A DNA stretch of 64,000 nt, taken from positions 320,001 to 384,000 of the forward strand of contig CAVXPZ010000001.1 of NCBI GenBank assembly GCA_963763775.1. Direction: 5' to 3'. Source of the stretch: an uncultured Chloroflexia bacterium (GTDB lineage: Bacteria; Chloroflexota; Limnocylindria; Limnocylindrales; CSP1-4). The position numbers and the translations under genes are program-made. The notes beneath the pieces are model-generated. The model saw only the letters and a list, made by a program, of their open reading frames with translations. It did not search any database and was not told the origin of the DNA. Shown in pieces: positions 793 to 63,034 of the stretch (its first letter is position 1; each line of letters starts with the position of its first letter).

Positions 793-2014
793 CTACTTCG
801 TGCCGATCGGGATGCCCGTCTTCCCGCAATCGGGAGCTGGCGGGCAGGAGACCGCCGTCCCGGCCGCCAGGGCGGCGGTCGCGGCGTCGATGGTCGTCTG
901 GATGTCGGCCGGGAGCTTGCTCGCCGCATCGTAGAAGGGCGAGATGCCGATGCCGCCGTTGGAGGCGTTGAAGAAGGTCAGGCCGCCCTTGGCCGTGCCC
1001 GCACGCGATCGCCTGGATCTCGTCGGACACCGACTTGGACAGGTGCTTCTCCGCGCTCGTCAGGATGCAGGCCTGGGAGGCCGGGTACGACTCGTGCTGG
1101 TCGACGTCGACGCCGATGGCGTTGATGCCGGCTGCGCACGCGGCGTCGATGACGCCGTTGCCGGTGAGGCCGGCGACCTGGAACAGGACGTCGACGTCCT
1201 TGTTCTGCTTGAGGAACTGGTCACCGAACGTCTTGCCGGCGGCCTGATCGGCGAAGCCGACCTTGAAGTCGCTGTCGGAGACGAAGGCGGTCTTGACCTT
1301 GATGGCCGGGTTGACCGACTGCGCGCCGAGGGTGTAGCCCTGCATGTAGCGAACGCACGGTCCGCACAGGGAGACGCCGCCGATCGCGCCGATCGTGCCG
1401 GTCTTGCTCGCGTTCGCCGCCGCGATCCCGGCCAGATAGCCGGCCTGGTCCTCGGCGTAGTTGATCGCGATGTACTTCGGCAGGAGCTTCGAGACATCGC
1501 CCGAGCAGTCCGCGAACGTCGGATCGACGTCGCCCGTGGCGTTGATGCACGGGGCGTGGTCGACGCCGATGAACCAGATGTCCGGGTTGGCCTTCGCGAG
1601 CTTCGCGGTGGCCGGCACGAGGTTGAAGCCCGTGGCGACGATCACGTTGAAGCCCTGGTCGACGTAGGACTGCAGGAGCGGCTCGTAGTCCGCGTCGCTG
1701 GTCGGGACGACGACGGGCGGCACGGCTGCGCCGATCGCGGCGGCCCCGGCCTGGGCGCCCTTGTTCGTGTACTCGTTGAAGTTCTTGTCGTTGACGGTGC
1801 CGACGTCGGTGACGACGCCGATCTTGAGATCCGACGACGGCGCGGCCGACGACGGCGCGGCGGCCGACTCCGAGGGAGCGACCGACGGGGCCACGGACGG
1901 CGCGACGGACGCGGCCCCCGAGGCGGGGGCGCTCGACGTCCCAGCCGAGCTACAGGCCCCCACGATGATGGACAGTCCCGCGAACAGGACCAGTCCGGTA
2001 GAGCGGATGCGCAT
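793..2014 (-). CDS. BMP-family (nucleoside-binding) ABC substrate-binding lipoprotein; frameshift near 1003
   Basis: GGAGGAGG RBS, lipobox IVGAC, DVGTVNDKNFN, EDQAGYLAG, FQVAGLTGNGV, IGVDVDQ, TSAEK. The C-terminus lies in another frame and ends at TAG 793-795. Confidence 0.9.
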
Positions 2015-5763: not shown

Positions 5764-6162
5764 TCAGCGGCCGTGGCGCTCCCGCTCGATCTCGTGGAGG
5801 CGCGCGTCGCTGATCCCGAAGTGGTGGGCGATCTCGTGGTGGACGGTGTCGGTCACGCCGGCCGCGAGGGCCTCCGGCGTCCGGTAGGACCGCATCAACG
5901 GGCCGCGGAAGATCGTGATCTTGTTCGGGACGGCGGCCAGGTCCGCCCCGTACGCGGTCCGCGGGATGCCCTGGTACAGCCCATAGAGGCCGCGCGCGCC
6001 GACCGAGGCGAGCTGCGCCGCGTTGGGTTCCTCCTCGATGACGATCGCGACGCTCCCGAGCTGGTCGGCGAAGACGGGCGGGAGCGCTTCGAGCGCATCG
6101 ATGACGAGGCCCTCGAGATCGACGGTGTCGAGCGAGGCCGAGGGTGAGACCGGGTCTTGCAC
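5764..6162 (-). CDS. Zincin-like metallopeptidase family protein
   Basis: LYGLYQGIP, PNKITIFRGPL, HHEIAHHFGISD (HExxH). Confidence 0.88.
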   Translation of the reverse strand: MQDPVSPSASLDTVDLEGLVIDALEALPPVFADQLGSVAIVIEEEPNAAQLASVGARGLYGLYQGIPRTAYGADLAAVPNKITIFRGPLMRSYRTPEALAAGVTDTVHHEIAHHFGISDARLHEIERERHGR

Positions 6163-6233
6163 CCGTCAACGATACCCGCGACGGCCGATCCAGCCTCCGG
6201 ACGAGTCCGCCGCGGGCGCGGGCGCGGGAGCCA

Positions 6234-6769: not shown

Positions 6770-7129
6770 ATGAAGTTCTTCATGTACACGCTCGGCGACG
6801 AGAACGTGCCGATGCCACCCCCGACCCCGGAGCTCTTCGAGCGCATGGGCGCCTTCATGCAGAAGGCCGTCGAGTCGGGCGCACTGATCGAGACCGGCGG
6901 CTTCGGCCCGAGCGTCCTCGGCGCGAAGGTCAGCCTCGCGGACGGCGAGTACACCGTGACCGACGGCCCGTTCTCCGAGGCCAAGGAGCTGATCGGGGGC
7001 TGGGCCCTCGTGAACGCCGCGTCGAAGGCGGAGGCCATCGAGATGGCCAAGGAGTTCCTCTCGATCGTCGGCGGCGGTGAGTCCCGCATCCGGCAGGTCT
7101 TCGGGCCGGAGGACGGCCCGCCCCAGTGA
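6770..7129 (+). CDS. YciI/DGPF-family protein
   Basis: VTDGPFSEAKELIGGWALV, AAGGAG RBS. Confidence 0.92.
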   Translation: MKFFMYTLGDENVPMPPPTPELFERMGAFMQKAVESGALIETGGFGPSVLGAKVSLADGEYTVTDGPFSEAKELIGGWALVNAASKAEAIEMAKEFLSIVGGGESRIRQVFGPEDGPPQ

Positions 7130-8415
7130 CGGGACCCGACACGCATCGAGCGATCGATGCGGTCTGGCGGATCGAGTCGGCCCGGCTGATCGCCGGGCTG
7201 ACGCGCATCGTCCGCGATGTCGGACTCGCCGAGGACCTGGCCCAGGACGCCCTGGTCGCGGCGCTCCAGCAATGGCCCGACTCGGGCGTCCCGGACAATC
7301 CGGGGGCCTGGCTGATGGCCGTCGGACGCCGGCGCGCCATCGACGTCCTCCGCCGGCAGGCGACGCTCGACCGAAAGCACGACGAGGTCGGCCGCGACCT
7401 CCAGGTCCAGCAGGATCTGGCGATCGCCGAGCGCGAGGCCGCGACGGACGACGACGTCGGCGACGACCTGCTGCGGCTCGTCTTCGTCGCGTGCCACCCC
7501 GTGCTCTCCCTGGACGCCCGGGTCGCGTTGACGCTCCGGTTGCTCGGCGGTCTCACGACACCGGAGATCGCGCGGGCCTTCCTCGTCCCCGAAGCGACCG
7601 TCGCCCAGCGGATCGTCCGTGCGAAGCGGACACTCACTGAGGCGCGGGTGCCGTTCGAGGTCCCGCGAGCGGCCGAGCTCCCGGCTCGCCTGTCCTCCGT
7701 GCTCGGGGTCATCTACCTCATCTTCAACGAGGGGTACTCGGCGACGTCCGGCGACGACTGGATGCGACCCGGCCTGTGCGAGGACGCGCTCCGCCTCGGC
7801 CGGATCGTCGCGGAGCTGATGCCGGCGGAGTCCGAGGCCCACGGCCTGGTCGCCCTCATGGAGATCCAGGCGTCGCGCTCGACGGCGCGCGTCGGGCCGG
7901 GCGGCGAGCCGATCCTCCTGCTCGACCAGGACCGGAACCGGTGGGACCCGCTGCTCATCCGCCGCGGCCTGACCGCGCTCGAACGGGCCCAGCGGATCGG
8001 CGGCGCACTCGGCCCGTACGGCTTGCAGGCCGCGATCGCCGCGTGCCATGCGCGCGCGACGACCCCGGACGCGACCGACTGGGCGCGGATCTCGGCGCTG
8101 TACGACGCCCTGGCCGAGCTGACGCCGTCGCCCGTCGTCGAGCTGAACCGGGCCGTGGCCGTGTCGATGGCCTTCGGCCCGGCCGCCGGCCTCGAGCTCG
8201 TCGACCGGCTCACCGACGACCCCGCGCTCCGGGCCTACCACCTGCTCCCGAGCGTCCGCGGCGATCTCCTGGCGAAGCTCGGCCGGCTCGACGAGGCCAC
8301 CGCGGAGTTCGAGCGCGCCGCCGCGCTCACCCGGAACACCCGGGAACGGACGCTGCTCCTCGAGCGGGCGGAGGCGCTGGCCGGAGACGCGGGAGATCGG
8401 CCGCCGGCTCGCTAG
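7126..8415 (+). CDS. ECF sigma factor, ECF42 group (C-terminal TPR/DUF6596 extension)
   Basis: AEDLAQDAL, PGAWLMA, DDLLRLVFVACHPVL, IYLIFNEGY, PYGLQAAIAACH; 429 aa. Confidence 0.92.
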   Translation: MTGPDTHRAIDAVWRIESARLIAGLTRIVRDVGLAEDLAQDALVAALQQWPDSGVPDNPGAWLMAVGRRRAIDVLRRQATLDRKHDEVGRDLQVQQDLAIAEREAATDDDVGDDLLRLVFVACHPVLSLDARVALTLRLLGGLTTPEIARAFLVPEATVAQRIVRAKRTLTEARVPFEVPRAAELPARLSSVLGVIYLIFNEGYSATSGDDWMRPGLCEDALRLGRIVAELMPAESEAHGLVALMEIQASRSTARVGPGGEPILLLDQDRNRWDPLLIRRGLTALERAQRIGGALGPYGLQAAIAACHARATTPDATDWARISALYDALAELTPSPVVELNRAVAVSMAFGPAAGLELVDRLTDDPALRAYHLLPSVRGDLLAKLGRLDEATAEFERAAALTRNTRERTLLLERAEALAGDAGDRPPAR

Positions 8416-8497
8416 GGCGTCGTGGGTCGATGCGGATACGATGCCGACTGACGACGGATCGGCGTTCCTAGGCCGATCGCTGGACGAGGAGTGACGC

Positions 8498-9178
8498 ATG
8501 AGGATCCGGCCCGCGGCCATCGCGATCGCGATCGCGGCGAGTGCGGCTGGGGCGGTCGCCCTGGTCCGCCAGAACCACCGTGTCGCGACCGCGCGAGCCG
8601 CCGACGGCGGCGTGCTGATGGGCGACGTGGCCGCCTACGACCGGATGAGCCGATGGTTCCTCGGGTCGCTGTTCCGAGGGATCGCCGCCGATGTCGCGGG
8701 CGCCGTCCCGCCGGCCGGCCGGGTCCTCGAGGTCGGCTGTGGTCCCGGCCTCCTGTCGATCCGGTTGGCCGGGTCGCACGGACTCGACGTCACGGGCCTC
8801 GACCTCGACCCCGAGATGATCGAGCGAGCGCGCGCAAACGCGGCGGGGGTCGCGGACGCCGCCGCCCTGTCGTTCGTTGCCGGCGACGTCGCGGCCCTTC
8901 CCTTCGAGGACGCGGCGTTCGACGCGGTGGTCAGCACGATGTCGATGCACCATTGGCCGGATCGAGCCGCGGCCTTGGGCGAGATCGCGCGAGTCCTTCG
9001 ACCGGGCGGCCGCGTCCTGATCTGGGATCTCAAGCCGGGGATCCTCCCGTTCCATCCGAAGACGCATGGCGAGCACGAGGCGATGGCCGGTCTCGCGCTG
9101 CACCCGGTCGGGATCAGCGACTGGCGATGGCCCGGCCCGCTGGTCCTGACGCAGCGGTTCGAACTCGAGCGCGATTGA
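8498..9178 (+). CDS. Class I SAM-dependent methyltransferase
   Basis: VLEVGCGPG, LPFEDAAFDAVV, RVLRPGG. Confidence 0.9.
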   Translation: MRIRPAAIAIAIAASAAGAVALVRQNHRVATARAADGGVLMGDVAAYDRMSRWFLGSLFRGIAADVAGAVPPAGRVLEVGCGPGLLSIRLAGSHGLDVTGLDLDPEMIERARANAAGVADAAALSFVAGDVAALPFEDAAFDAVVSTMSMHHWPDRAAALGEIARVLRPGGRVLIWDLKPGILPFHPKTHGEHEAMAGLALHPVGISDWRWPGPLVLTQRFELERD

Positions 9179-9196
9179 AGCTGGAGGGTCAACGGC

Positions 9197-10060
9197 ATGC
9201 CTCGCCTGCAGTCCAAGAGCTTCGCGACGCCTGATGACGTCCACTCGATGCCGAAGGCGCGCTTCGAGACGGTCGGCATGGGCGATGCCACCGTCGGGCA
9301 CTGCACCTTCGAGCCCGGCTGGCGCTGGTCAGCGGACATGGCGCCGATGGTGGGGACCCGGAGCTGTCAGATGCGCCATTTCGGGTACACGATCTCCGGG
9401 GCGATGCACATCGTCATGGACGACGGCACGACGCTGGATATCGGCCCGAATGCCGTGTTCGAAGTCCCCCCGGGTCATGACAAGTGGGTGCAGGGCGATG
9501 AGCCATGGGTTTGCGTGGAGTGGGGAGGGACAGCCCGGGCGCAGAAGATGGCCTTCGACGACACCGATCAGCGGATGCTCGCGACGGTCGTGTTCACGGA
9601 CATCGTCGACTCGACTGTCACGCTCGAGCGCCTTGGGGACGAGGCCTGGCGCGCTGTGCTGGTCGCCCATAACGCACGGTTCCGCGAACAACTGAACCTG
9701 TATCGCGGTCGTGAGGTGAACACGACGGGCGACGGGTTCCTCGCGATCTTCGACAGCGCCACCCGGGCCGTGCGGTGCGCGACGGCGATGACCCGGTCGG
9801 CCGTGGACATGGATCTGCACATCCGCGCCGGGGTCCATACGGGCGAGGTCGACGTCTCGGGGGAGGACGCGCGCGGTCTCGCCGTCCACGCTGCTGCCCG
9901 GATCCTCGCCCTTGCCGGACCCGACGAGGTGCTCGTCTCATCCACGACCGGCGAATTGCTTGACGGCTCGGGCCTGGAGCTCGAGGACGCCGGAATGCAC
10001 GAGCTGAAGGGCATCGCCGGAGCTCGCCATCTGCTGCGAGTCGTCGACGCGGGGACGTAG
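9197..10060 (+). CDS. Cupin + class III adenylate/guanylate cyclase fusion
   Basis: N-terminal FEPGWRWS..C..RH..VPPGHD cupin; C-terminal FTDIVDST, TGDGF, RAGVHTGEV, AARI. Confidence 0.9.
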   Translation: MPRLQSKSFATPDDVHSMPKARFETVGMGDATVGHCTFEPGWRWSADMAPMVGTRSCQMRHFGYTISGAMHIVMDDGTTLDIGPNAVFEVPPGHDKWVQGDEPWVCVEWGGTARAQKMAFDDTDQRMLATVVFTDIVDSTVTLERLGDEAWRAVLVAHNARFREQLNLYRGREVNTTGDGFLAIFDSATRAVRCATAMTRSAVDMDLHIRAGVHTGEVDVSGEDARGLAVHAAARILALAGPDEVLVSSTTGELLDGSGLELEDAGMHELKGIAGARHLLRVVDAGT

Positions 10061-10074: not shown

Positions 10075-10911
10075 TCAGCTTTCCGCGACGTGGTCGGCCC
10101 AACGGTGGTCCGGCTCATAGCCCAGGACGCGGCGTGCGTGGTCGATCGAGAGCAGCGTCTCTCGGCCGTGGACTTCGCGGGTGATCGGGACGGACGGGAA
10201 GACCTCGGCCATCAGGTCCGCGCTTGGCCGGGTCATGACCGTCTCGGCGGCCGCCACGATGCAGATCTCGGCGCCCGTGACATCGGCGTCCAGCGCGAGT
10301 CGGCAAGCCTTCGCGACATCGCGGCAGTCGACGTATCCCCAGAGATTCCACCTGCGGATCCGCGCGTCGTCCCAATAGGAGGGGAAGGCCGCGTAGTCGT
10401 CGGGCTCCATGATGTTCGAGATCCGCAGGCCCACGAAGGGGATCCCGGTCCGGCGATTGGACTGGACGGCCATCGTCTCGGCCACCAGTTTCGAGAGGGC
10501 ATACGACGACTCGGGTCGCGGCTCGATGGTCTCGTCGATCGGGGCGAACTGCGGCGGCGTGTCGAACGGGAGGCCGAGCACGGTCTCGCTCGAGGCCCAG
10601 ACCACTCGTCGAAGGTCGTGCGCCTCGGCGGCGGCGAACACGTTGTACGTGGACAGCGCGTTGATCCGGAAGGTCTCAGCGTGTGGACGGATGTCCGGAG
10701 CGGGGATCGCCGCGAGGTGGACGACGGCCTCGGCTCGGGCAAGCGCCTCGTACGCCTGGCCGGCGTCGGCGAGATCGGCCACGAGGCACTGCCCATGCGC
10801 CGAACCGTCATGGCGCGTATCCACGTTCAGGACGTCGTGGCCGTGCTCGCGCAGGTCGCGGACGACCCACCGCCCGGCCTTGCCGCTTCCGCCTGTCACG
10901 ACGATCCGCAC
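10075..10911 (-). CDS. NAD-dependent epimerase/dehydratase
   Basis: VTGGSGKAG, VHLAA, WASS, YALSK. Confidence 0.92.
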   Translation of the reverse strand: MRIVVTGGSGKAGRWVVRDLREHGHDVLNVDTRHDGSAHGQCLVADLADAGQAYEALARAEAVVHLAAIPAPDIRPHAETFRINALSTYNVFAAAEAHDLRRVVWASSETVLGLPFDTPPQFAPIDETIEPRPESSYALSKLVAETMAVQSNRRTGIPFVGLRISNIMEPDDYAAFPSYWDDARIRRWNLWGYVDCRDVAKACRLALDADVTGAEICIVAAAETVMTRPSADLMAEVFPSVPITREVHGRETLLSIDHARRVLGYEPDHRWADHVAES

Positions 10912-11017
10912 TGGAGGCCTCCTTGCCCGGGGACGTCATTGTGCGACACGCGGTGCCCTCGGCGCGTCGACGGAAGCCGCGGCGTCGCGGCCGGCGGTCC
11001 ATGGCGACCCGTTCGAG

Positions 11018-11075
11018 CGGGCTACCACGGACCTCCCGATGACGACCTCGCCCCGAACGACTTCACGCAACTCCA
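11018..11075 (+). repeat. Degenerate copy of the dnaE promoter and 5' end (attL-like)
   Basis: CGGGCTACCAcgGACCTCCCGaTGACGACC-TCGCCCCGAACGACTTCACGCAaCTCCA matches 16034-16091 with 3 substitutions and 2 single-base indels. Confidence 0.9.
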
Positions 11076-11197
11076 GTGGTCGATAGCTCCGAGTTTGAGC
11101 GCGGTCTAGCTGCATTTGACGTCGACGCATCAACGCGCTCGTGGCAGGAGCCGACACGACGAGGGAGGTCACCCTGACTGACCGCGAGGTTGCCGTA

Positions 11198-11272
11198 CTC
11201 GCCCTTCCCGCGGGCTGGAGGTTCCAGATCGGCCTCGGCCATGAGGACATCTGGTTCGACAGCGGGCTACTC
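11198..11272 (+). pseudogene. C-terminal fragment resembling Imm33-type immunity proteins
   Basis: LALPAGWRFQIGLGHEDIWFDSGLL resembles the LxLPPGWRF...EDVWFD tail of that family. No matching N-terminus is seen. Confidence 0.45.
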
Positions 11273-11341
11273 GCCCCGGGTGACGTTCTCGCACGCTCGC
11301 GAATGTCGGCGACATTGGCCCGGGTTGCGTCCGTAGCCAGG

Positions 11342-12014
11342 TCAGGGCGACGAGCCCGTGCGGGGATTCGTCGCCGCGAAGATCGAGGCCGAGCCGATGG
11401 TCTCCAGCTCCACGTGTTCGAATGATGCCAAGAGGATCTCGCGGAGCCCCTCCTCGGTGTCATCGAGGTTGTCGAAGCCACCCTGCTTGTTGAAGGTGCC
11501 AAGGAACCTCCGTGCCAGCCACGTGTGGTGACCGGAGGTTCCCGAGGACCGATGCACCGAAGAGCACGCCATCCGGCGCAAGGACCGCGGCCACGTTGGC
11601 GACGGCCATCGCCTTGCGCGTGAGCGGCCCAGGCAGGCAATGGATGACCAGGTGCAGTGCGGCGGATTCGAACGGTCCGCTGACGGGAAGCGGCTTGAGG
11701 ACGTCGGCCTCGACCGCCGTGATGTCCAGCTGCCCCAGGCGCTGGGAGACATGACGGAGCACGTTCGGGTTGGGGTCCAGGATCGTCACCGGGCTGCCAT
11801 CGGGGAGACCGGATCGCTCGAGGAAGTAGCCGGAGCCGGGACCCACATCCAGATGGTGGCTGCGGATGCGCTGCTGGTACCGCTCTAGGAGTCGGGTCGT
11901 CGGGCAGCGCCAGACGAACCTGGCGATGGGGCCGAGGACCAGTGGGTCGTACGCGTTCAGCAGCAGCCGCGTGTAGTCCCTCTGGCCCTTGTAGGCGGGG
12001 TCGTCGCGATCCAT
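11342..12014 (-). CDS. Class I SAM-dependent methyltransferase (frameshift near 11545)
   Basis: YDPLVLG, HLDVGPGSGYFL, LDPNPNVL, HCLPG, VLAPDGVLFGA. The C-terminus FNKQGGFDNLDD lies in ORF 11342..11752. Confidence 0.82.
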
Positions 12015-12165
12015 CGGGCTCGAGCGATCCTCCACCGAGGTGGTTGCCGGTCGCGACTGTCGCGGCAGCCCCGAGGGCAGCCCGGACTGCGGCGTGGGAC
12101 GAGGACGAACATGCTACCACAACGCCGAACCATCCCGCGCCGCTCGTCGAGCCCGGTCGTCAAGG

Positions 12166-12213
12166 CGGCGGATGGTGGACCCACAGGGCAATGAGTTCTG
12201 CTTCGATCTACAG
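12166..12213 (+). pseudogene. VOC/glyoxalase C-terminal remnant
   Basis: RRMVDPQGNEFCF, the typical DPxGNEFC tail, with no upstream domain. Confidence 0.5.
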
Positions 12214-12560
12214 TGTTCCCGAGGGCGTGCGAGTGTCTGGGTCCCGCCTGTACCGAGTCGTGATCTTCATCACCGCCGACATGCGCGTCGTCGGCGGTTC
12301 CCGTGAAGGCGAGGTCGTCGAGGTGATCCTCGGCGCGGGAGATGAGCACGAGTCCGACCCTGCCGTCGCGAGCCCCACTTGGCTCGAGTGTCTTCGGAGT
12401 CTCCGACCCCATGAGGGAGCTGTGGCAGTAACGAGCCTCATCCATCGGGTCCGCGGAGCAGCACGACCAGCATTGCAGTCGAACGGACGACCGAGGTGCT
12501 GACGGCATGGGCACGCGAGAGCGGCTTCGACCTATCAGCCGGCCTGTCCGACGCTCACCG

Positions 12561-13112
12561 ATGATCACCACCGACCGACTCGAGACGCTGCCCAAGCCGC
12601 TGATCGTCACGTTTGCCGCCGACTGCGCCGAGCACGTCCTGGCGATCTTCGAGCAGGGATACCCCGACGACCCGCGGCCACGCGAGGCGATCGCCGCCGC
12701 CCGTGACTGGCTGGAAGGAAGGACCTCGAAGGAGCGTCTCGAGAGCGCCCGTGCAGGTGCCATCAAGGCCAGCGGCAAACCCATGGGCAACCATGCCGTC
12801 ACGGGGGCACCAGGGTGGTTCACCGGCCTCCTGCCGAGCGACACGGAGTCGGCGGCTGACGCCGCGGCAGGTGCCGCCTACACAGCTCTCATGGCCAACG
12901 ATGCTGGCGAGGCGGCCCGCGCCGCGAGCCGCGTCGCCGTGGACGCAGCGATGGCCGCGGTCTTCGCTTGGCGGGAGCAGTCTGGGATGGACTTTGCTGC
13001 CGCGGACGCCTACGCGTCCCCTCTCGAGCGTTCCTGGCAGGCCGACCGCCTGGCGACCCTCGAGGCGGACCATTCGGCTTGGCGCACCGGCGACCTGTCG
13101 AAGGGAGCGTGA
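12561..13112 (+). CDS. Imm5-like putative immunity protein
   Basis: FAADCAEHVLAIFE..YPDDPRPREAIAAARDW signature and ERSWQ tail. Confidence 0.75.
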   Translation: MITTDRLETLPKPLIVTFAADCAEHVLAIFEQGYPDDPRPREAIAAARDWLEGRTSKERLESARAGAIKASGKPMGNHAVTGAPGWFTGLLPSDTESAADAAAGAAYTALMANDAGEAARAASRVAVDAAMAAVFAWREQSGMDFAAADAYASPLERSWQADRLATLEADHSAWRTGDLSKGA

Positions 13113-13871
13113 AGCGAAGGCACGACCGTCGTTGACGCGCCTAGGCGTTGCGCACGGAAGTCCTCACGCCTGCCGACAGGCATTCAAAGGGTTGACCCGA
13201 AGCGCGATGCATCCGATACGGTGGCGGGGACTCCTCGCCGCCCGAGCCGGTCGAGAGGTCATCGGCGATCGTCCGATCGAGCCGGGCGTCGCGGCCGCCA
13301 ACGACGACGAGCCCGCGTACTCCAAGCTGCGGCTGGCCGATGTCCGAGACTGGCCGCCACCTGGTCCGCACGGGCCTCAAGGCGACCGAGGCGAGTGGTC
13401 GTGGTGGGTGGAAGATCGCCAGGTAGGGCGGATCGGCTGCCCGACTCGATGCCGCCCGCGGGGGAGTCACAGTCCACGTAGGGTCGCGCACGTAGCTCGG
13501 GACAGCTGCGCTGGTTCACGTCGACAATCACGACGGAGTGGTCGGCCTGACGGGACGGCATCGGCGCCGGATCATGGTCCGACTGTGCGGGACCGGCGGC
13601 TGATGATCCAGGTCATGGCCCGTCCGGCGGCAGGCACCAGCCCTGGCGTCCTCGCCACACTCCGTTCGCGCTTCCGGCGCACGGTCGGTTGATGACCGGG
13701 AGTGGTGCGGGTTGGTGCTGGACCAGGCCTCGCCGAGTTCAGCCCGCTCAGGACTGCGAGCCCGCTCAGACTCGAGGAGACGGACGCGACGACTAGGCCT
13801 CTGGCGACGCCGAGGGCCGGCGTCCCTCAGCGTCACTGAGACTCGCTCGCTCATCGGACCTCCGAGCCGGT

Positions 13872-14092
13872 GCACCGTATCTCTGCTTCCAGCGCGTTCC
13901 CGAAGCGAAGGCTGTGAAGAATCGGCTCCATCTCGACGTCTCGGTCGAGGAGGTGGACTCGGCTTGTGCCCGCATCGAGGCGCTCGGAGGTCGGCGACGG
14001 GATCACCACGACTTCCACGAGTACGGCTATTCCTGGCGGCGGATGGCGGATTCCGGCATGGGAACGAGTTCTGTCTGATCTTCGAGGCCTGA
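13872..14092 (+). pseudogene. VOC/glyoxalase-family fragment (5' half missing, frameshifted)
   Basis: LCFQRVPEAKAVKNRLHLDV...RIEALGG...WRRMAD, then GNEFCLIFEA* in a shifted frame. Confidence 0.7.
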
Positions 14093-14530
14093 GTCGTTTG
14101 TCGGGCTCGCCCACACCGGACCTTTCGAGTCGCAGGATCTCGCTCCGACGTGACGCAGCTCCGCGGCGGATTCCGATGGCTGACCGAGTTGCGCTGCAGG
14201 GACGCGTCGGGAGACAGCCCATCGTGACCGATCGGGACCGCGGCAGTCCAGGATCGACCTGCCGCCGGGCCAGCTATCATCCTCGACCCATGAGTGGCGA
14301 CACCCACATCGAGCCCGTCGTGACCCAGCTCCAGGTTCCGCCTGGAATGCTCGGGCCGGATCCGGTGACCTCGATCGGTCGAGTGTTCCTTGGGGCGGCA
14401 ACATCGCACCCGACGCCCGCCAGCTCGTCCCATGACCTTGGTTCCGTTGCGCGATCCATCGATCATGGCGACGATCGCATGAGTTCATCGAAGGCTGCGA
14501 TGCCGTCGGTCCGTACCTCAAGCCGAACTG

Positions 14531-14979
14531 ATGCCCAAGCACCCATCTGCCCGGCAGCTCGCCTTCGCCGCGGCTCTACGACCGATCGAGCCTGTTGTCG
14601 GTCGGCTCTCCGAGTCGGACGTGGTCGCACGCCTCGCCGCGGCTCTCCCGCCGGCCGAGGAGCGGGTCTATGCGGGCAGAGCGGGCGACGGTCTCGACCG
14701 CGACCTCAACAGCGCCATGTATCCGACGCGATGGCGGGGCTTGCTCGCAGCTGAGCACGCCGGCGCGGCCCGTCGATCGATACCTGCGCTCCGCCTGGAG
14801 CGCTGTGGGGTTGGGAGGTCGGTGACCTGACGTGGGCAGCGGCGCTCGACGCACTCGACGTTGCGATGCACGCAGCCGTTCTCGACGTAGAAGGCCTGCC
14901 GGTCACATCGGCGATGAAGGCCGCTCACCGTTTGGTGCTGGAGATCGCCGGTTCGTCGCTTGGAGCCGCCGGGTCCTGA
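14531..14979 (+). pseudogene. Hypothetical gene, probably frameshifted
   Basis: MPKHPSARQLAF...SAMYPTRWRGLLAA. A protein-like continuation DLTWAAALDALDVAMHAAVL...GS* lies in another frame. Confidence 0.35.
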
Positions 14980-15074
14980 ATTGTTGTCGCACCGCCGGTG
15001 CGTCGGGGCTCGTTCGACATAGCCACTTGGTCAGGCTTGCGGCCGTCGTGGAAGCCGACGAGAGTGAGCCCGAG

Positions 15075-15407
15075 ATGGAGCGCACCACATTTCACGTGAT
15101 CGGACCGACGCCGGCGTTCCTGCAGGGGCCACGACCGGACGGTGTCCGAACCTGGACCTGGGCCAACGAGATCACCCTCGAGCCCGGCACACGCCTGGGC
15201 TACCTCCGGGCCGGCGGGTACGCCGACCCCTGTTCCAGCATCTACATGGACTGGGACGAGTTCACCGTGCTCGCGGGTCCTTGGGCCGGTCGCGAGGTCT
15301 TGGTCGTGGACGCCGGAACGGTCCGCGACGAAAGGGGTTCGGCCACCCACGACGGTCCGAGACCCCGTCTCGGTCCGCCACCGACGATCGAGGCCGAGAT
15401 TCCGTGA
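15075..15407 (+). CDS. Hypothetical protein (paralog of the next gene)
   Basis: GC3-rich codons. Motifs VIG..LEPGTRL..FTVLAGPWAGR are shared with 15484..15978. Confidence 0.6.
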   Translation: MERTTFHVIGPTPAFLQGPRPDGVRTWTWANEITLEPGTRLGYLRAGGYADPCSSIYMDWDEFTVLAGPWAGREVLVVDAGTVRDERGSATHDGPRPRLGPPPTIEAEIP

Positions 15408-15483
15408 CCCGCCGCGTGGCATTGGGCGGTCATCCCGTGACACAGCTGTCGTGAGGAGCCGAGGGCAGTCGCGACCCCGGGGC

Positions 15484-15978
15484 ATGACCCCGGGCGCGGT
15501 CGTGCTCGACCGACTTCTCGGGCGACCTGACTCACCGAGACTCGATCTGGACCTCGCTGACCCGTGTGTGCTCGAGATCCCGTGCGGCCACGTCCACCAG
15601 GAAGAGGTCAACGCGAGGGTCGGGTGGTTCGGCGACGACGTCGACCCGTTGCCGCGGCTCTGGGAGGTGATCGGCGATGTGTGGGCCCAGGAGGCGACCG
15701 CGACCGGCGTCTACCGCGGGCACGTCGGAGCGCTGCCAGCCGGAACGCCGCTACGCCTCGACGCGTCCACCCTCTGGATCGTGCCGACCTCGTACATCCA
15801 CCACGTCGGGCGCGAGTACGATGCCGGGCACCGGTTCTTCGTCCTGGGCGGCGCGTTCGTCGGGCGCTGCTTCTATCTCTACGAGGTCGACGACGGGAGG
15901 GGTGCGAGGCCGGATGGGATCCGGCCGCTCGAGGTCAGCCGGCGGCCGACCGACGCCCCGACTGACTCATTCCCTTGA
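15484..15978 (+). CDS. Hypothetical protein
   Basis: GC3-rich codons; VIG..LPAGTPL..FFVLGGAFVGR. Confidence 0.6.
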   Translation: MTPGAVVLDRLLGRPDSPRLDLDLADPCVLEIPCGHVHQEEVNARVGWFGDDVDPLPRLWEVIGDVWAQEATATGVYRGHVGALPAGTPLRLDASTLWIVPTSYIHHVGREYDAGHRFFVLGGAFVGRCFYLYEVDDGRGARPDGIRPLEVSRRPTDAPTDSFP

Positions 15979-16033
15979 CGTGGCGCTCGATTCGGGTCCG
16001 TCCAGTCGGTGACCCGCCCCGGGACCGGCGTCA

Positions 16034-16091
16034 CGGGCTACCATTGACCTCCCGTGACGACCCTCGCCCCGAACGACTTCACGCACCTCCA
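16034..16091 (+). repeat. Intact copy of the direct repeat (dnaE -10 element and first codons; attR-like)
   Basis: Contains TACCAT at 16039-16044 and the GTG start at 16054. Near-identical to 11018-11075. Confidence 0.9.
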
Positions 16092-19000
16092 TGTCCACTC
16101 GGAGTTCAGCCTGCTCGACGGGCTCGGGCGGATCACGGAGCTGGTCGACGCGGCGGCGCAGCAGGGCATGGATTCGCTCGCGTTGACCGACCACGGCGCC
16201 CTCTATGGCGCCGTCGCGTTCTACCAGGCCGCGAAGAACCAGGGCATCAAGCCGATCATCGGGATCGAGACGTATGTCGCCCGCCGCTCGATGCTCGACA
16301 AGGAAGGCAAGGCCGATAGCCAGCCGTTCCACCTGATCCTGCTCGCCCAGGACTGGGTGGGCTACCAGAACCTCTGCCGGCTCGCCACGGACGCCCATCT
16401 CGACGGCTACTACTACAAGCCGCGCATCGACCGTGAGCATCTCGCCAAGCACAGCAAGGGCCTCATCGGTCTCTCCGCCTGCCTTGGCGGCGAGGTCGCG
16501 AAGGCGCTCGAGGTCGACGACTGGGAGCTGGCCCGCAAGGTGGCCGGCGAGTACGGCGACATCTTCGGCAAGGACCGGTTCTTCCTCGAGCTCCAGGACC
16601 ACGGGCTCGCGGAGCAGCGGCGACTGAACGAGCAGTTGCACCGCCTGGCCCCGGAGACCGGCCTGCCGCTGGTCGTCACCAACGACCTCCACTACGTCCG
16701 CCGCGACCAGGCCGAGGCCCAGGACGTCCTCCTCTGTATCGGCACGGGCAACAACCTCGACACGCCGAACCGGCTCCGGTTCGAATCGCCCGAGTTCTAT
16801 GTGAAGTCCGCGGCCGAGATGGCGGCGCTCTTCCCGGACGACCTCGACGCGATCCGCAACACCCGACGCATCGCCGAGATGACCGACATCTCGCTGCCGC
16901 TCGGGCAACTCCGGATCCCGCACTTCCCGGTGCCCGATGGCGAGACGGTCGAGAGCTGGCTCCGCAAGGAGTGCGAGGCCGGGCTGCGACGCCGCTACGG
17001 CGAGATCACGCCGGCCCTCCAGGAGCGCCTGGACTACGAGCTCGGCGTCATCCTCTCGATGGGGTATGCCGGCTACTTCCTGATCGTCGCGGACTTCATC
17101 CGGTTCGCCCGCGAGCAGGGCATCCAGACGACCTGCCGCGGCAGCGCGCCGGGCTCGATCGTCACGTACACCCTGGGTATCACGCCGGTCGATCCGATCC
17201 TCTACCAGCTCCCGTTCGAGCGGTTCCTCAACCCGGACCGCGTGACGATGCCCGACATCGACGTGGACTTCGAGGACGGCCGCCGCGACGAGGTCATCGC
17301 CTACGTCGGGCGCAAGTACGGCCAGGACCATGTGGCCCAGATCATCACGTTCGGCACGATGCTCGCGCGGGCGGCGATCCGCGACGTCGGCCGGGTGCTG
17401 GGCAACTCCTACGGCGAGGTCGACCGCATCGCGAAGGCGATCCCGAACCAGCTGGGGATCTCGCTCGACGAGGCCCTCAAGATCGCGCCGGCGCTCCGAG
17501 AGCAGGTCGACGCCGACCCGGGAGTCAAGCGGATCATCGACTTCGCCCGCCACCTCGAGGGCGTCGCCCGGAACGCGTCCACGCACGCGGCCGGCGTCGT
17601 CATCAGCCGCGAGCCGCTGACCGAGCTCATGCCGCTCCAGCGGGCGACGAACTCGGACGGGCTGATGACCCAGTACGAGATGCACGCGATCGAGGCGCTG
17701 GGCCTGCTCAAGTTCGACTTCCTCGGCCTCTCGAACCTGACGATCCTGCGGCAGGCCGTGGATACGGTCCGCGCCGAGCGCGGCGTCGAGATCGACCTCG
17801 ACACGATCCCCCTCGACGACGCCCGCACGTTCGAGCTGCTCGCCTCGGGCGAGACGACCGGCATCTTCCAGCTCGAGTCCGCGGGGATGCGCCGGTACAT
17901 CCGCGAGCTGCGCCCGACGTCGGTCTACGACCTGGCCGCGATGGTCGCGCTCTATCGCCCGGGACCGATGGACAACATCCCGGCCTACATCCGGCGCAAG
18001 CACGGCCAGGAGCCGGTCACGTACCTGCACCCGCTGCTCGAGCCGTACCTGGAGAAGACCTACGGGATCTTCGTGTACCAGGAGGACATCATGTCCGCGG
18101 CCGTGGCCCTCGGCGGGTTCAGCGGCCCCGAGGCCGACACGCTCGGCTACGCGATCCGCAAGAAGAAGTCCGCGGTCCTGCGCGCCCAGAAGGAGAAGTT
18201 CGTCACGCAGGCGGCCGAGCGCGGGGTCGCCGCCAAGACCATCGATGACGTCTTCGCCGCCTTCGAGCCCTTCGAGCGCTACGGGTTCAACAAGGCGCAC
18301 GCCACCTGCTACGGGCTCATCGCCTACCAGACGGCCTACCTCAAGGCCAACTACACGGTCGAGTACATGACCGCGGTCCTGACGGCGTTCCGCTCGAACG
18401 AGGAGAAGGTCGCGGCGGCCGTGGCCGAGTGCCGCCGGATGGCGATCGAGGTCCTCCCGCCCGACGTCCACCGGAGCCATCTCGAGTTCACGGTCGAAGG
18501 CCCGGCGATCCGGTTCGGCCTGCTGGCCGTCAAGAACGTCGGCCAGGGCGCGATCGAGTCGATCATCGCGGCGCGCGACGACGGTGGCACCTTCCGGTCC
18601 CTCACCGACTTCTGCACCCGGATCGACCTCCGCCTGTGCAACCGAAAGGTCCTCGAGGCGCTCATCAAGGTGGGGGCCCTGGGCGATCTGGGGCACCCGG
18701 CGCAGCTCCTCCTTGGTCTCGACGACGCCATCGCGTCCGCCCAGGCGACCCAGCGCGACCGGGTGTCGGGCCAGACCTCCCTCTTCGATCTCGGCGCGGC
18801 GGACGCGGAGGTCTTCGAGCGGCCGCTCCCCGCCGCGACCGAGGTCCCGATGCGCGAGCGACTCCGGTGGGAGAAGGAGCTGCTCGGGCTGTACCTCTCG
18901 GAGCACCCGATGGGCGAGGTCGCCGAACAGGTCGGGCGCTTCGTGAATGCGTACTCGGGCGATCTGCGGGACGAGTCGCTCGACGGCCAGCGGGTCGTCG

Positions 19001-19941
19001 TCGGCGGGATCGTGACCGGTATCCGCACGGTGGTCACGAAGAAGCAGGAATCGATGGCGATCGCGACGCTCGAGGACCTCCAGGGGACCATCGAGGTCGT
19101 CGTGTTCCCGCGCCTCTACGAGACCACGCGGGGGACCTGGCGCGACGGGCAGATCCTGCTGGTCGCTGGGCGGGTCGACCATCGAGGCGAGGAGATCTCC
19201 TTGCTCGCCGACCTTGCGGTCGACTGGGACGACGCTGCGGCTCGCGGACCCGAGGCGTTCGCCCGGGAGGTCGCCGCCGGCGACCGCGGCCGAGGTCGCG
19301 GCGGGTACGGGGGCCGCAACGGGAACGGCAATGGGAACGGGAATGGCAACGGGTTCGGGCGACCGGCCGCCCCGCCCGACGAGCGGCCGATGGTCGCGGT
19401 CGGCCCGGGTCCGGCCGTCGACGCCCCGGTCGCGGTCGGTGCCGCGGTCGCCGGCGTGCCGCCGGACGCCCCGGCGGTGCCCTTCGTCTCGCCCCTGCGC
19501 GGCGACGAGGCGGCGGCCGGCATGGCGTCACTGCCATCCATCGCGCCGGCCGAGCCGATGCCCACGTACCAGGAGCCGCCTGGCGCCACCGTCGCCGATC
19601 CCGAGGTGGAAGAGGAGCCGGCGCTGCCCGATGAAGCGAGGTCGCGTGCGGCGGATCTCGCCGCGGCGCCGACCCGCCCGATGGATGCCGGGGAGGGGAG
19701 CGTCCTCCACGTCCGGTTCTTCGGCGCGTCGGGCGACCGGCTCCTCGACGCGATGCGCGCGTTCCGGGACGTCGTGCGGGCCCGCCCCGGCGAGACCCGT
19801 GTCCTCGTCCACATCGACGTCGCCGGGAGTACGGGCCTGCCGATGGAGCTTCGGCCCGTCGCCTACGACGCCGAGCTGCTGGCCGAGGTCCGTCGACGGC
19901 TGGGGGACGGCCTCGTCGAGCTCCGGCTCGCCAGCACGTGA
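16054..19941 (+). CDS. dnaE: DNA polymerase III alpha subunit
   Basis: PHP HLHVHSEFSLLDG/TDHG, RGSAPGS, PFERFLNPDR, MPDIDVDF, GLLKFDFLGL, YGFNKAH, QTSLF clamp motif, OB fold. Confidence 0.98.
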   Translation: MTTLAPNDFTHLHVHSEFSLLDGLGRITELVDAAAQQGMDSLALTDHGALYGAVAFYQAAKNQGIKPIIGIETYVARRSMLDKEGKADSQPFHLILLAQDWVGYQNLCRLATDAHLDGYYYKPRIDREHLAKHSKGLIGLSACLGGEVAKALEVDDWELARKVAGEYGDIFGKDRFFLELQDHGLAEQRRLNEQLHRLAPETGLPLVVTNDLHYVRRDQAEAQDVLLCIGTGNNLDTPNRLRFESPEFYVKSAAEMAALFPDDLDAIRNTRRIAEMTDISLPLGQLRIPHFPVPDGETVESWLRKECEAGLRRRYGEITPALQERLDYELGVILSMGYAGYFLIVADFIRFAREQGIQTTCRGSAPGSIVTYTLGITPVDPILYQLPFERFLNPDRVTMPDIDVDFEDGRRDEVIAYVGRKYGQDHVAQIITFGTMLARAAIRDVGRVLGNSYGEVDRIAKAIPNQLGISLDEALKIAPALREQVDADPGVKRIIDFARHLEGVARNASTHAAGVVISREPLTELMPLQRATNSDGLMTQYEMHAIEALGLLKFDFLGLSNLTILRQAVDTVRAERGVEIDLDTIPLDDARTFELLASGETTGIFQLESAGMRRYIRELRPTSVYDLAAMVALYRPGPMDNIPAYIRRKHGQEPVTYLHPLLEPYLEKTYGIFVYQEDIMSAAVALGGFSGPEADTLGYAIRKKKSAVLRAQKEKFVTQAAERGVAAKTIDDVFAAFEPFERYGFNKAHATCYGLIAYQTAYLKANYTVEYMTAVLTAFRSNEEKVAAAVAECRRMAIEVLPPDVHRSHLEFTVEGPAIRFGLLAVKNVGQGAIESIIAARDDGGTFRSLTDFCTRIDLRLCNRKVLEALIKVGALGDLGHPAQLLLGLDDAIASAQATQRDRVSGQTSLFDLGAADAEVFERPLPAATEVPMRERLRWEKELLGLYLSEHPMGEVAEQVGRFVNAYSGDLRDESLDGQRVVVGGIVTGIRTVVTKKQESMAIATLEDLQGTIEVVVFPRLYETTRGTWRDGQILLVAGRVDHRGEEISLLADLAVDWDDAAARGPEAFAREVAAGDRGRGRGGYGGRNGNGNGNGNGNGFGRPAAPPDERPMVAVGPGPAVDAPVAVGAAVAGVPPDAPAVPFVSPLRGDEAAAGMASLPSIAPAEPMPTYQEPPGATVADPEVEEEPALPDEARSRAADLAAAPTRPMDAGEGSVLHVRFFGASGDRLLDAMRAFRDVVRARPGETRVLVHIDVAGSTGLPMELRPVAYDAELLAEVRRRLGDGLVELRLAST

Positions 19942-61011: not shown

Positions 61012-61098
61012 GCCGAGGTGGCGGAATAGGCAGACGCGCTGGTTTCAGGTACCAGTGGCCGCAAGGTCGTGTGGGTTCAAGTCCCTCCCTCGGTACCA
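61012..61098 (+). tRNA. tRNA-Leu(CAG)
   Basis: CTGGT-TTCAGGT-ACCAG anticodon arm, long variable arm, CCA. Confidence 0.95.
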
Positions 61099-61134
61099 AC
61101 TCTCCCTCTCGGACCCGGCGACGGCAGGCACCTT

Positions 61135-61219
61135 GCCCAGGTGGCGGAATTGGTATACGCGTACGTTTGAGGGGCGTATGAGGCAACTCATCCGGGTTCA
61201 AGTCCCGGCCTGGGCACCA
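61135..61219 (+). tRNA. tRNA-Leu(GAG)
   Basis: TACGT-TTGAGGG-GCGTA anticodon arm, CCA. Confidence 0.95.
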
Positions 61220-61234
61220 CACTCGCGATCTTCC

Positions 61235-61263
61235 ATGACGACCGCCTTCCGGGCGGTCGTCAT
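61235..61263. terminator. Hairpin between tRNAs (terminator-like, no U-tract)
   Basis: ATGACGACCGCC-TTCCG-GGCGGTCGTCAT, perfect 12-bp stem. Confidence 0.55.
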
Positions 61264-61272
61264 ACTGTGTCC

Positions 61273-61349
<77 letters not shown>

Positions 61350-61457
61350 TCGCCGCGTGCCGGCATCCGCCAAGGGAGGCGATCGGCCGACGGCGTGGGA
61401 CGACGCTGTATGCTGATGCCACGGGCGCCGCGGAGGGTGGCCCCCACGGAGGAACGC

Positions 61458-62027
61458 ATGAACCCGACGATCATCATCATCCTCGTGGTCGTGGTGGTCC
61501 TGGTCGTCGTCGCGATCGGGATCTACAACGGCCTCGTGCAGCGACGGCTGCGCGTCGACGAGGCGTTCGCCCAGATCGAGGTCCAGCTCAAGCGACGCCA
61601 CGACCTGATCCCGAACCTCGTGGAAGCCGTCAAGGGCTACATGGGCTTCGAGCAGAAGGTCCTGACGGACGTCACGAACGCTCGAGCCCAGGCGGTGTCC
61701 GCCGGAGCCCAGGGACCGGCCCAGCAGGCCGCGGCCGAGAATGCCCTGACCGGCACGCTGCGCTCGCTGTTCGCGGTCGTCGAGAACTATCCGGAACTCA
61801 AGGCGAACGAGAACGTCCTGGCCCTGCAGGAGCAGCTGACCACGACCGAGAACCAGATCTCGTTCTCACGGCAGCACTACAACGCGACGGTCCTCGACTA
61901 CAACACGTCGATCGCCACCTTCCCGAACGCCCTCCTGGCAGGCCCATTCGGCTTCACGAAGCGCGAGTTCTTCGATGCCGAGCCTGAGGCGTCCGAGGTC
62001 CCCAAGGTCGACCTCAGTCTGAGCTGA
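61458..62027 (+). CDS. lemA: LemA family protein
   Basis: YNGLV, IEVQLKRRHDLIPNLV, ENYPELKAN, TENQI..SRQ.YN, FP. Confidence 0.96.
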   Translation: MNPTIIIILVVVVVLVVVAIGIYNGLVQRRLRVDEAFAQIEVQLKRRHDLIPNLVEAVKGYMGFEQKVLTDVTNARAQAVSAGAQGPAQQAAAENALTGTLRSLFAVVENYPELKANENVLALQEQLTTTENQISFSRQHYNATVLDYNTSIATFPNALLAGPFGFTKREFFDAEPEASEVPKVDLSLS

Positions 62028-62049
62028 TCGCCGGTCCTCAGGAGGGACC

Positions 62050-63034
62050 GTGGCCGGGTCTTCGTTCTACCAACAGATCGCCGCGAACCGGCGGAACTCG
62101 TTCCTGATGGCGTTGCTCGTCGTCGCCCTGCTCGGCGCGCTCGGGTTCTCCATCGGGTACGTCATCTTCGGCACCCCGGCGGGCGGCATCGCGACCACCG
62201 TCTTCGCGATCGCCCTCGGCGGGATCTCCGGGGCGTTCACGTACTTCGAGGGCGACAAGCTGGTCCTGGCGGTCAGTGCCGCGCGGGCGGTCGACGACAC
62301 CAGCGCACCGCAGCTCATGAACGTCGTTCGTGAGATGGCCATCGCGGCGAATGTCCCGATGCCGGCCGTCTACACCATCGATGACACGGCCCCGAACGCC
62401 TTCGCGACCGGCCGTGACCCCGCGCACGCGTCGCTGGCGATCACCACCGGCCTGCTCGAGAAGCTCGACCGCGAGGAGCTCCAGGGCGTCATCGGCCACG
62501 AGCTCTCCCACGTTCGCAACTACGACATCCGCTTCTCACTGGTCGTCGGCGTGATGGTCGGGGCGATCGCGCATCCTCGCCGACTTCTTCCTGCGCTTCA
62601 CGTTCTGGGGCGGCGTCGGCGGACGCTCCCGCGACCGCGACAGCAGCGGCGGCAACGGCGCGCAGGCGATCGTCCTGGCCATCGCCATCGCCCTCGCCAT
62701 CCTCGCGCCGCTCATCAGCCGGTTCATCCAGCTGGCCGTGAGCCGCCAGCGCGAGTACCTCGCGGACGCATCGTCCGTGGAGCTCACCCGGAACCCCTAC
62801 GGGCTGGAGCGTGCGCTCGCGAAGATCGGCGCCGACAAGGAGGTCCTCGAGGTGGCCAACCGCGGGACCCAGCACATGTACTTCACGAACCCGATCAAGA
62901 AGTTCGAGGCACGGTCCTCGAACCTGATGTCGACGCATCCACCGATCCTCGACCGGATCAATCGGCTGCGGGAGCTGACCGGCGATGCGCCGCTTGACGC
63001 GGCCGATTCGACGGGTCTGGCCGGCCTGGAGTAG
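62050..63034 (+). CDS. htpX: M48 zinc protease HtpX (frameshift near 62571)
   Basis: PNAFATG, GHELSHV.NYD, SRQREYLAD, STHPP...RI. Confidence 0.92.

Follow-up and report, generated by a model that had tools for sequence, protein, structure and literature searches.

We describe a displaced copy of the 5' end of dnaE that lies upstream of the intact gene in a 64,000-nucleotide stretch of DNA from an uncultured Chloroflexia bacterium (contig CAVXPZ010000001.1; the whole stretch is referred to as the window) and that recurs, joined to the same conserved arm and followed by different genes, in six other genomes. The displaced copy and the arm, together called the scar, are interpreted as the attL-like trace of a clade-wide family of integrase-less cassettes and islands whose point of insertion is near codon 13 of dnaE, a tentative reading to which we assign a probability of roughly 0.45. 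The topology shared by these loci is firm: DNA enters at about codon 13 with a working 5' end of its own, and the older 5' end comes to lie outward. The recurrence of the scar with different cargo points to an undescribed way of placing genes before an essential gene.

The repeat, the signature arm and their recurrence

A blastn comparison of positions 10500-16599 with the whole window aligns 11018-11075 with 16034-16091 as a direct repeat in which 54 of 59 columns match (91.5%, with 3 mismatches and two 1-nt insertions or deletions; E 2.5e-15), the second-best non-self match in the same comparison having E 0.008. A repeat search of the window recovers the same pair, broken into three pieces at the two indels, and a profile of the extra copies discussed below (nhmmer) matches the window at 11015-11110 with E 3.8e-22. 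A preliminary description of this DNA, made from its letters alone, had proposed this 58-bp imperfect direct repeat and the decay of its left copy, and both are borne out in every detail. The left copy reads TACCAC at 11024-11029 where dnaE reads TACCAT at 16040-16045, its dnaE-like frame encodes LAPNDFTQLQ and reaches a TAG stop at 11107-11109, and its ATG at 11039 opens a different frame that ends with TAG at 11084-11086. The weak similarity suspected farther upstream is seen only as patches in a global alignment and may be no more than chance. The gene itself is intact (Table 1).

The hexamer had been labelled a -10 element. In a TACCAT-like (TAnnnT-like) form this putative element is found at a constant distance before the start codon in the dnaE genes of relatives; a scan for the sigma-70 consensus finds no promoter at either copy, and a scan for intrinsic terminators is likewise negative at the copies. 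The TACCAT-like hexamer stands about 8 nt before the GTG or ATG, both in the window (16040-16056) and in the dnaE genes of relatives, with CCTCCC, which is not a Shine-Dalgarno sequence, in between. This spacing of hexamer and start codon suggests that the dnaE mRNA of the clade may be leaderless or nearly so. At the structural level, no RNA family of Rfam is found at either copy or in the intervening island (gathering threshold over the whole window; E up to 1 over 10800-16300), and single-strand DNA folds of five extra copies on both strands give no stable or attC-like structure (z from -0.7 to +1.4).

Two simple explanations of the repeat were rejected. The island between the two copies is not a decayed second dnaE, because a tblastn comparison of DnaE with the island yields only 17 aa of the N-terminus (E 0.8) and chance matches. 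Nor do the extra copies represent starts of a real protein, the translations downstream of them not being protein-like and not being conserved beyond the signature at the DNA level.

The relatives used for comparison are the best 80 of at least 598 DnaE matches in a collection of species-representative genomes, each locus taken with 10 kb of flank. Many of these loci (designated L001 and so on) are long-read metagenome-assembled genomes (MAGs) with frameshifts. The nearest relatives are Chloroflexota MAGs labelled Candidatus Limnocylindria or Limnocylindrales. The dnaE tree pairs the window with L001 as its sister (88% nucleotide identity in dnaE), followed by L029 and L003. Running the profile of extra copies over the 80 loci and the window with nhmmer, and counting matches with E<1e-3 that are not dnaE starts, gives nine extra copies in seven sources: the window (11015), L005 (3210), L012 (9013 and 8051), L024 (1960), L029 (8790), L034 (2035) and L038 (8927 and 2033). 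All nine lie upstream of dnaE, on the same strand and 0.8 to 8 kb away from it. Weak matches in L037 (E 0.08), L008 (E 0.33), L007 (E 1.1) and L022 (E 1.7) are outside this count. Among the 32 rows of the dnaE tree that have at least 1 kb of upstream sequence, 7 have an extra copy and 25 have a single copy. Neither the signature arm nor the recurrence across the clade had been noticed in the preliminary description. With respect to the assemblies themselves, the dnaE genes of L029 and L038 are split into several open reading frames (ORFs) and that of L001 is read through in a stop-to-stop ORF of 1532 aa (L001 9953-14548); long-read indel errors are the likely cause, and ORF-based scans of these loci are therefore imperfect.

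Eight of the nine copies share a signature of about 30 nt directly after the dnaE-like part of about 47 nt, and dnaE lacks this signature. Where dnaE continues CTCCAC GTCCACTCGGAGTTC AGCCTG, the copies continue CTCCAC c(g/t) GTC(A/G)ATAG(G/C)T(G/C)(G/C)(G/C)AGTT CGCGCAC and are 5 nt longer. The degenerate signature has a single match in the window (11079-11095, 0 mismatches) and a single one in each of L012, L024, L029, L034 and L038; the other loci of the 80 have none. Its matches are thus confined to the extra copies, which indicates that these form one lineage rather than a set of independent duplications. Over the eight copies, 7 or 8 agree at each column from ACTTC through GAGTTC, and conservation falls to background within about 12 nt after this segment as well as upstream of the hexamer. 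Over the 300 nt beyond the signature, 27 of 28 pairs show no relationship (z at most 4.0); only L024 and L034 are related there (z 72). In the alignment of these two loci, the sole orthologous pair, intergenic DNA is near random and the scar core of about 50 nt is about 88% identical. The copies differ in their state of preservation. The two copies of L029 match at 54 of 55 aligned columns, and the extra one begins 28 nt from the start codon of Zincin_1. In the second copy of L012 and the copy of L034 the dnaE-like part is decayed and the core is well kept. In the tandem arrays of L012 and L038 the better-preserved copy is the one adjoining dnaE.

Cargo and the region upstream of dnaE

The DNA between the displaced copy and dnaE spans 0.8 to 8 kb, and no two genomes have related cargo apart from L024 and L034 (Table 1). 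Variable cargo between the same repeats, which had been suggested as a check on the insertion, is thus present in six other genomes, and an insertion at the very start of dnaE that displaces a 5' copy is supported by the recurrence, by this variability and by the transfer of one unit between lineages. The latter concerns L024 and L034, which are collinear from the scar through dnaE and have nothing in common to the left of the scar. The dnaE genes of L034 and L021 are 81.1% identical at the nucleotide level and those of L024 and L034 70.7%, whereas the amino acid identity of the cargo gene adjoining dnaE is 91.4% between L024 and L034 and 68.4% between L034 and L021. The cargo thus reverses the relationship of the dnaE genes, and we conclude that the unit was passed between distantly related lineages and settled at an identical position. 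The AraC and glyoxalase genes of L038 are 81-83% identical in nucleotides to those of L033, their dnaE genes being 72% identical.

The sister L001 has the cyclase gene, 48 nt and then dnaE, with no scar, extra copy or island. An empty site had been proposed as a further check, and this locus provides a single-copy, island-free relative; the epimerase gene that stands to the left of the displaced copy in the window is missing there too, and L001 is for this reason not a clean empty site. The beginning of dnaE also shows signs of exchange. Over the first 60 aligned columns, the identity of the window is 96% to the distant L013 and 86% to the sister L001, and just after them it is 80% and 93%, respectively; the sisters L024 and L038 are 84% identical in the first 60 columns and 90-94% in the next three windows of the alignment. 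These values are suggestive of mosaic 5' ends that are decoupled from the rest of the gene, and no more than suggestive because the region is short.

The backbone of the clade consists of a nucleoside hydrolase, a GDSL lipase, Zincin_1, a hypervariable stretch and dnaE; in 13 loci the distance from Zincin_1 to the downstream dnaE is 1.1 to 9 kb. The hypervariable stretch contains toxin-antitoxin pairs, GmrSD with a methylase, an aquaporin, hydrolases and glyoxalases. Directly upstream of dnaE, and with no detectable scar, L043 has a Phd/PIN toxin-antitoxin pair (9141-9893) and L032 a DNA methylase with a GmrSD-type nuclease (6976-9297); the hot spot upstream of dnaE also collects defence genes. 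In L034 a 122-aa HTH_28-type protein (1614-1979, minus strand; E 1.5e-5) abuts the left side of the scar, beside an AHSA1 gene. HTH_28 is found in the N-termini of transposases too, and the protein is probably an ordinary regulator.

Mechanism, rival explanations and known systems

In the explanation that we favour, the scar would delimit, on the side away from dnaE, a piece of horizontally acquired DNA that entered the start of the gene together with a second, working 5' end. The scar would consist of the displaced -10-like hexamer, the start codon and the first 12 or so codons of dnaE, joined at about codon 13 to the signature arm. The older 5' end would have been pushed outward with the signature attached, and dnaE would stay intact because the insert brings a working copy of its 5' end. 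The units in Candidatus Limnocylindria would range from single-gene cassettes to 8-kb islands, would always use the same entry point and could accumulate in tandem, the latest arrival adjoining dnaE; the right copy would again read as a target, making further insertions possible. A site-specific process at the junction is favoured by the constancy of that junction, by sharp boundaries on either side and by the retention of the core where neutral DNA has decayed, and we infer that entry and exit may occur by site-specific recombination at the core of about 50 nt that spans it. With no recombinase found in any unit, such an enzyme would act in trans, and it might be encoded by the host or by an unseen autonomous relative. 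Which of the two copies in the window is native would likewise be a matter of this model: the right copy would be the incoming one.

A number of observations weigh against this explanation, foremost among them the searches for a recombinase. In the window island, neither the 57 six-frame ORFs of at least 60 aa (Pfam and PHROGs) nor the 23 ORFs of 35-59 aa contain an integrase, recombinase or transposase domain; 32 of the 57 were also compared with NCBIfam and show no recombinase domain. The preliminary description had likewise recognised no integrase or transposase inside the island, and the six-frame searches with hidden Markov models (HMMs) recover no recombinase remnant. The units of the scar-bearing loci and their vicinity (53 and 94 ORFs) yielded no recombinase, and neither did 128 ORFs from the 4.5 kb upstream of dnaE in 21 further loci, 121 ORFs farther upstream in 19 loci or 25 other ORFs of the window. 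The sets of 128 and 121 ORFs were filtered by length and by G+C content at third codon positions (GC3), represent 22 further loci overall and exclude L037 and L039, so that foreign or short genes could be missed, and units longer than 10 kb fall outside the view of the searches. A site-specific integrase as the agent is accordingly hypothetical, none being found in the nine units or among the GC3-filtered ORFs of those 22 loci. Searches of plasmid and phage collections with a well-preserved extra copy gave only chance matches of 21-26 nt, and no excised circle or attP-bearing replicon was seen in these collections.

The sequences at the junction raise further objections. An imperfect inverted repeat of 7-8 nt (CTCCACC and GGTGGGAG, 8-nt spacer) is present in one variant of the signature only, and a check of the alignments by eye reveals no conserved arm upstream of the right copies. 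When the displaced copies are compared with 29 dnaE genes, the dnaE of the same genome ranks 1, 3, 26, 1, 2, 6, 1 and 7 for the eight copies. Five of the eight thus match their own dnaE type (ranks 1, 3, 1, 2 and 1 of 29), which fits a foreign attP only if the donors were close kin or gene conversion followed, and a clear swap of type is seen only in L024 (rank 26 of 29). For the left copy of the window its own dnaE ties for rank 1 of 29, and the earlier proposal that the insert supplies the present promoter and N-terminus of dnaE in the window is conjectural. The copy L038B, finally, has no signature and continues as true dnaE to about codon 35-40, which is a different junction and implies that non-specific events also happen at the start of dnaE.

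The main rival explanation, which we regard as appreciably less probable than the favoured one but as the strongest of the competitors, dispenses with a dedicated enzyme. An ancient accident would have left a 5' fragment of dnaE joined to the signature, and this segment would since then have acted in homologous recombination by RecA as a movable left arm of about 50 nt, dnaE itself being the long right arm. The failure to find a recombinase anywhere searched, the presence of the host's own dnaE variants in most displaced copies, the mosaic first 60 columns of dnaE and the fact that loci with no visible scar also have a hot spot between Zincin_1 and dnaE all agree with this account, and L038B demonstrates that a non-specific displaced 5' end can arise at the locus. 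Homology alone, however, makes the signature superfluous, yet the latter is about 88% retained between L024 and L034 where flanking non-coding DNA has been randomised, and it outlasts the dnaE-like part in old copies (the second copy of L012 and that of L034). Moreover, at least seven unrelated cargos begin within about 12 nt of one point after the signature, which is not produced by homology alone.

The units could also be remnants of classical integrase-carrying islands or phage-like elements that targeted dnaE and from each of which the integrase has since been deleted. The attL/attR-like architecture, the conserved arm and the rebuilt target gene match such elements, the cargo in the window is partly decayed, and SXT/R391 elements occupy the 5' end of prfC and form tandem arrays (PMC5812530). 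We nevertheless judge this origin quite unlikely: the gene is missing from nine of nine units in seven genomes, and the six-frame searches of the window island reveal no remnant of it. Nine independent losses are improbable in view of the very young 1.2-kb unit of L029, which holds a single hydrolase gene. Slightly less probable still is a vertically inherited cis-element of the host, in which an old duplicated 5' end with its signature would be kept by selection as a decoy promoter or operator or as a stop for transcripts and peptides that begin at the severed start, the cargo changing by ordinary gain and loss. Such an element would account for a core conserved against a decayed background, for the invariable placement of the copy on the dnaE strand and for the early in-frame stops of several copies, but not for the fact that 25 of 32 related genomes, the sister species among them, lack it, for the two copies in some genomes or for a cargo phylogeny incongruent with that of dnaE; the copies also lack a known RNA family, structure (z from -0.7 to +1.4), and a consensus promoter or terminator. 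An assembly artefact or chance similarity has a negligible probability. The window and many of the loci do look like long-read MAG assemblies with frameshifts, but the repeat of the window has E 2.5e-15 and the same structure is found in six other independent assemblies; this recurrence excludes a misassembled left copy, which had been named as one of the results that would overturn the insertion.

Comparison with known systems places the units of the favoured reading between several classes. SXT reportedly supplies a new promoter and N-terminal codons, according to work by Hochhut and Waldor in 1999. The SXT/R391 integrative conjugative elements (ICEs) insert in the 5' extremity of prfC and can form tandem arrays at this site (PMC5812530), and the units resemble them in using the 5' end of a housekeeping gene as target and in forming tandem arrays. 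In both cases direct repeats bound the insert (here in the window and six other genomes) and the target gene is intact. SXT differs in being about 100 kb long, with its own tyrosine integrase and conjugation genes, whereas the units are 0.8-8 kb long and have no recombinase (80 six-frame ORFs of the island and the units of the six other genomes); the target here is dnaE, and the repeat of about 58 nt is accompanied by a conserved arm. The unit is not classifiable as an autonomous integrative element. The cis-mobilizable elements (CIMEs) of Streptococcus thermophilus are islands flanked by att sites that lack recombination genes and are mobilised in cis by accretion with a related ICE. Pavlovic in 2004 and Bellanger in 2011 are said to have studied them. 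The units share with CIMEs the att-like repeats as bounds, the lack of an integrase and the stacking at one site, but no related integrase-bearing element has been found here.

In being small modules without an internal recombinase, the units described here resemble Xer-dependent elements or dif modules. A dif site consists of two 11-nt arms and a 6-nt spacer, whereas the only comparable feature at the junction is the imperfect inverted repeat of 7-8 nt with its 8-nt spacer in one variant of the signature. In Acinetobacter plasmids such modules are small, often with one gene, and lie between short conserved recombination sites; they encode no recombinase, and their movement has been attributed to the host XerC/XerD (PMC6449649, PMC13141974). 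The site at dnaE differs in lying within a coding 5' end, where insertion must rebuild the gene, and in that the copies are direct repeats, whereas dif modules alternate in orientation. Integron cassettes offer a likeness in the single-gene units, in the site of about 95 nt at the 3' end of a gene and in the stacking at a fixed entry point with the newest unit nearest (L012, L038 and L029); they differ in that no intI adjoins, the site is conserved in sequence without an attC-like hairpin and the entry point is the start of an essential gene. In homology-facilitated illegitimate recombination, which accompanies natural transformation, foreign DNA is added through a long homologous anchor and a second joint of short homology or microhomology. 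The dnaE gene could be such an anchor and L038B resembles such a product, but the conserved signature and the fixed junction are left unexplained.

Two classes were rejected. A transposon, insertion sequence (IS) or miniature inverted-repeat transposable element (MITE) is not indicated, no inverted repeat joining the ends of the island, the duplication being 58 nt long, no transposase domain being present and the copy not being dispersed in the 64-kb window. An integron is not indicated either, dnaE adjoining the site, no intI being found in any locus scanned upstream and an attC hairpin being absent (z from -0.7 to +1.4). A more far-reaching version of the favoured reading, which we regard as unlikely, is nevertheless that the start of dnaE is the entry point of an integron-like cassette platform in Candidatus Limnocylindria. 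Cassettes of one to a few genes would each carry a sequence-conserved site of about 95 nt, made up of a spare dnaE 5' end and the signature, and a recombinase encoded elsewhere would insert them at codon 13 or thereabouts. Each insertion would give dnaE a fresh promoter and N-terminus and move the old one outward, so that dnaE 5' ends would spread horizontally with the cassettes, and the site could never be lost because dnaE is essential.

If the favoured reading is true, accessory genes would have in an essential replication gene a landing site that is both safe and lasting, and this throughout a whole class of soil and freshwater bacteria that are abundant but uncultured, with a cargo ranging over immunity-like proteins, hydrolases, acetyltransferases, regulators and two-component systems. 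It would imply that the promoter and first dozen codons of dnaE are exchangeable between lineages, which matters for the use of dnaE as a marker, and it bears on the origin of hot spots without visible mobile-element genes. That the units have no recombinase leads to a testable question, namely which enzyme recognises the core of about 50 nt. Full-text literature searches on dnaE with integrative elements and on Limnocylindria found no report of dnaE as an attachment site among the papers listed.

Contents of the island and the rest of the window

Table 1. Features of the window around the island, and cargo of the units in related loci
Feature	Position or unit	Strand	Remarks
Zincin_1 gene	5764..6165	-	Pfam; conserved backbone gene bounding the hypervariable region upstream of dnaE
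NAD-dependent epimerase	10075..10935	-	Pfam Epimerase, E 3e-29; stands to the left of the displaced copy and points away from it; not in the sister L001
Left (displaced) copy of dnaE 5' end	11018..11075	+	TACCAC hexamer, ATG, about 12 dnaE-like codons out of frame with the ATG
Signature arm	11076..11102	+	Contains GTCGATAGCTCCGAGTT at 11079-11095; common to extra copies in other genomes, not in dnaE
Class I SAM (S-adenosylmethionine) methyltransferase	11348..12014	-	First cargo gene; 3' end faces the signature; frameshift near 11540
Imm5-like putative immunity protein (P0002)	12561..13112	+	183 aa; Pfam Imm5_like, E 1.2e-13; apparently intact
Glyoxalase_6 fragment	13797..14075	+	Pfam; profile positions 35-97 of 106 only
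Gene A	15075..15407	+	110 aa, no family; GC3 about 0.82; no Pfam, NCBIfam or PHROG match
Gene B	15484..15978	+	164 aa, no family; GC3 0.84-0.92, codon use like that of the host; 55 nt separate its end from the right copy
Right copy, live dnaE 5' end	16034..16091	+	TACCAT hexamer, GTG at 16054, codons 1-13
dnaE	16054..19941	+	GTG start, 1295 aa; Pfam PHP, DNA_pol3_alpha, finger, HHH_6, OB
Cargo of L029	1.2-kb unit		One alpha/beta hydrolase
Cargo of L012	Two single-gene units in tandem		DUF6518, GNAT
Cargo of L038	Four-gene unit, then 1-kb unit		Subtilase-DUF2207-AraC-glyoxalase in the first unit
Cargo of L024 and L034	8-kb block		Response regulator, histidine kinase, DctP, second kinase, unknown gene

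The G+C content of the island is 68.1%, compared with 71.1% for the window, and no ORF in 10936-16048 passes the filter of GC3 >0.82 that characterises the ordinary genes of the window. Searches of the island ORFs with NCBIfam and PHROGs identify the methyltransferase and the Imm5-like gene only. The methyltransferase shares 91% identity with a family of 223 aa that is widespread in Limnocylindrales, and it is divided between two frames, residues 1-159 corresponding to 12014-11538 (91%) and residues 158-222 to 11542-11348; its match to PHROG 2132 is similarly split over two ORFs, and the record of the window has 184 aa where the cluster mates have 223-230 aa. The C-terminal part is less conserved (71% versus 91%). 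The frameshift could mark a pseudogene or be a long-read (homopolymer) error. Full-length homologues of the Imm5-like protein have 165-180 aa and are 56-73% identical to it. About 1.9 kb (13113-15070) have little coding periodicity and a flat GC3 frame plot. The description of the island as decayed, made earlier, is thus partly upheld by the frameshifted methyltransferase and this stretch of low coding signal, but the Imm5-like gene and gene B look intact.

Gene B belongs to a 90% identity cluster of four members on four contigs, the representative being 95% identical to it, and a comparison with the ESM Atlas (best score 0.85) is uninformative. The cyclase gene (9179-10060) has no 90% cluster mate, and the adjoining epimerase gene (10075-10935) belongs to a 90% cluster with 61 members from many environmental contigs; the very different spreads of cyclase, epimerase and gene B are as expected for a mosaic region. 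The recognisable small genes of the island (11141-11425 and 12561-13112) are immunity-like, the Imm5_like assignment being firm and an Imm33-like one weak (E 9e-4). They accompany two small genes without a family (15075-15978), with no toxin gene nearby, and give the impression of a collection of orphan immunity genes.

Elsewhere the window consists of core chromosome, with polA, uvrABC, secDF, recJ and tatC. DnaE has a low-complexity C-terminal extension of about 240 aa (19200-19941), comprising a GRGRGGYGGRNGNGNGNGNGNGFG run, a stretch rich in proline and alanine and a conserved-looking end, and the local G+C content there is 0.75-0.78. Two clusters of tRNA genes, far from the repeat copies and the island, occupy 61012-63867 with eight genes in all (Leu, Leu and Val; Phe, Gly, Gln, Cys and Leu), and a LemA ORF frame at 61239-62027 overlaps the tRNA-Val gene at 61273-61349.

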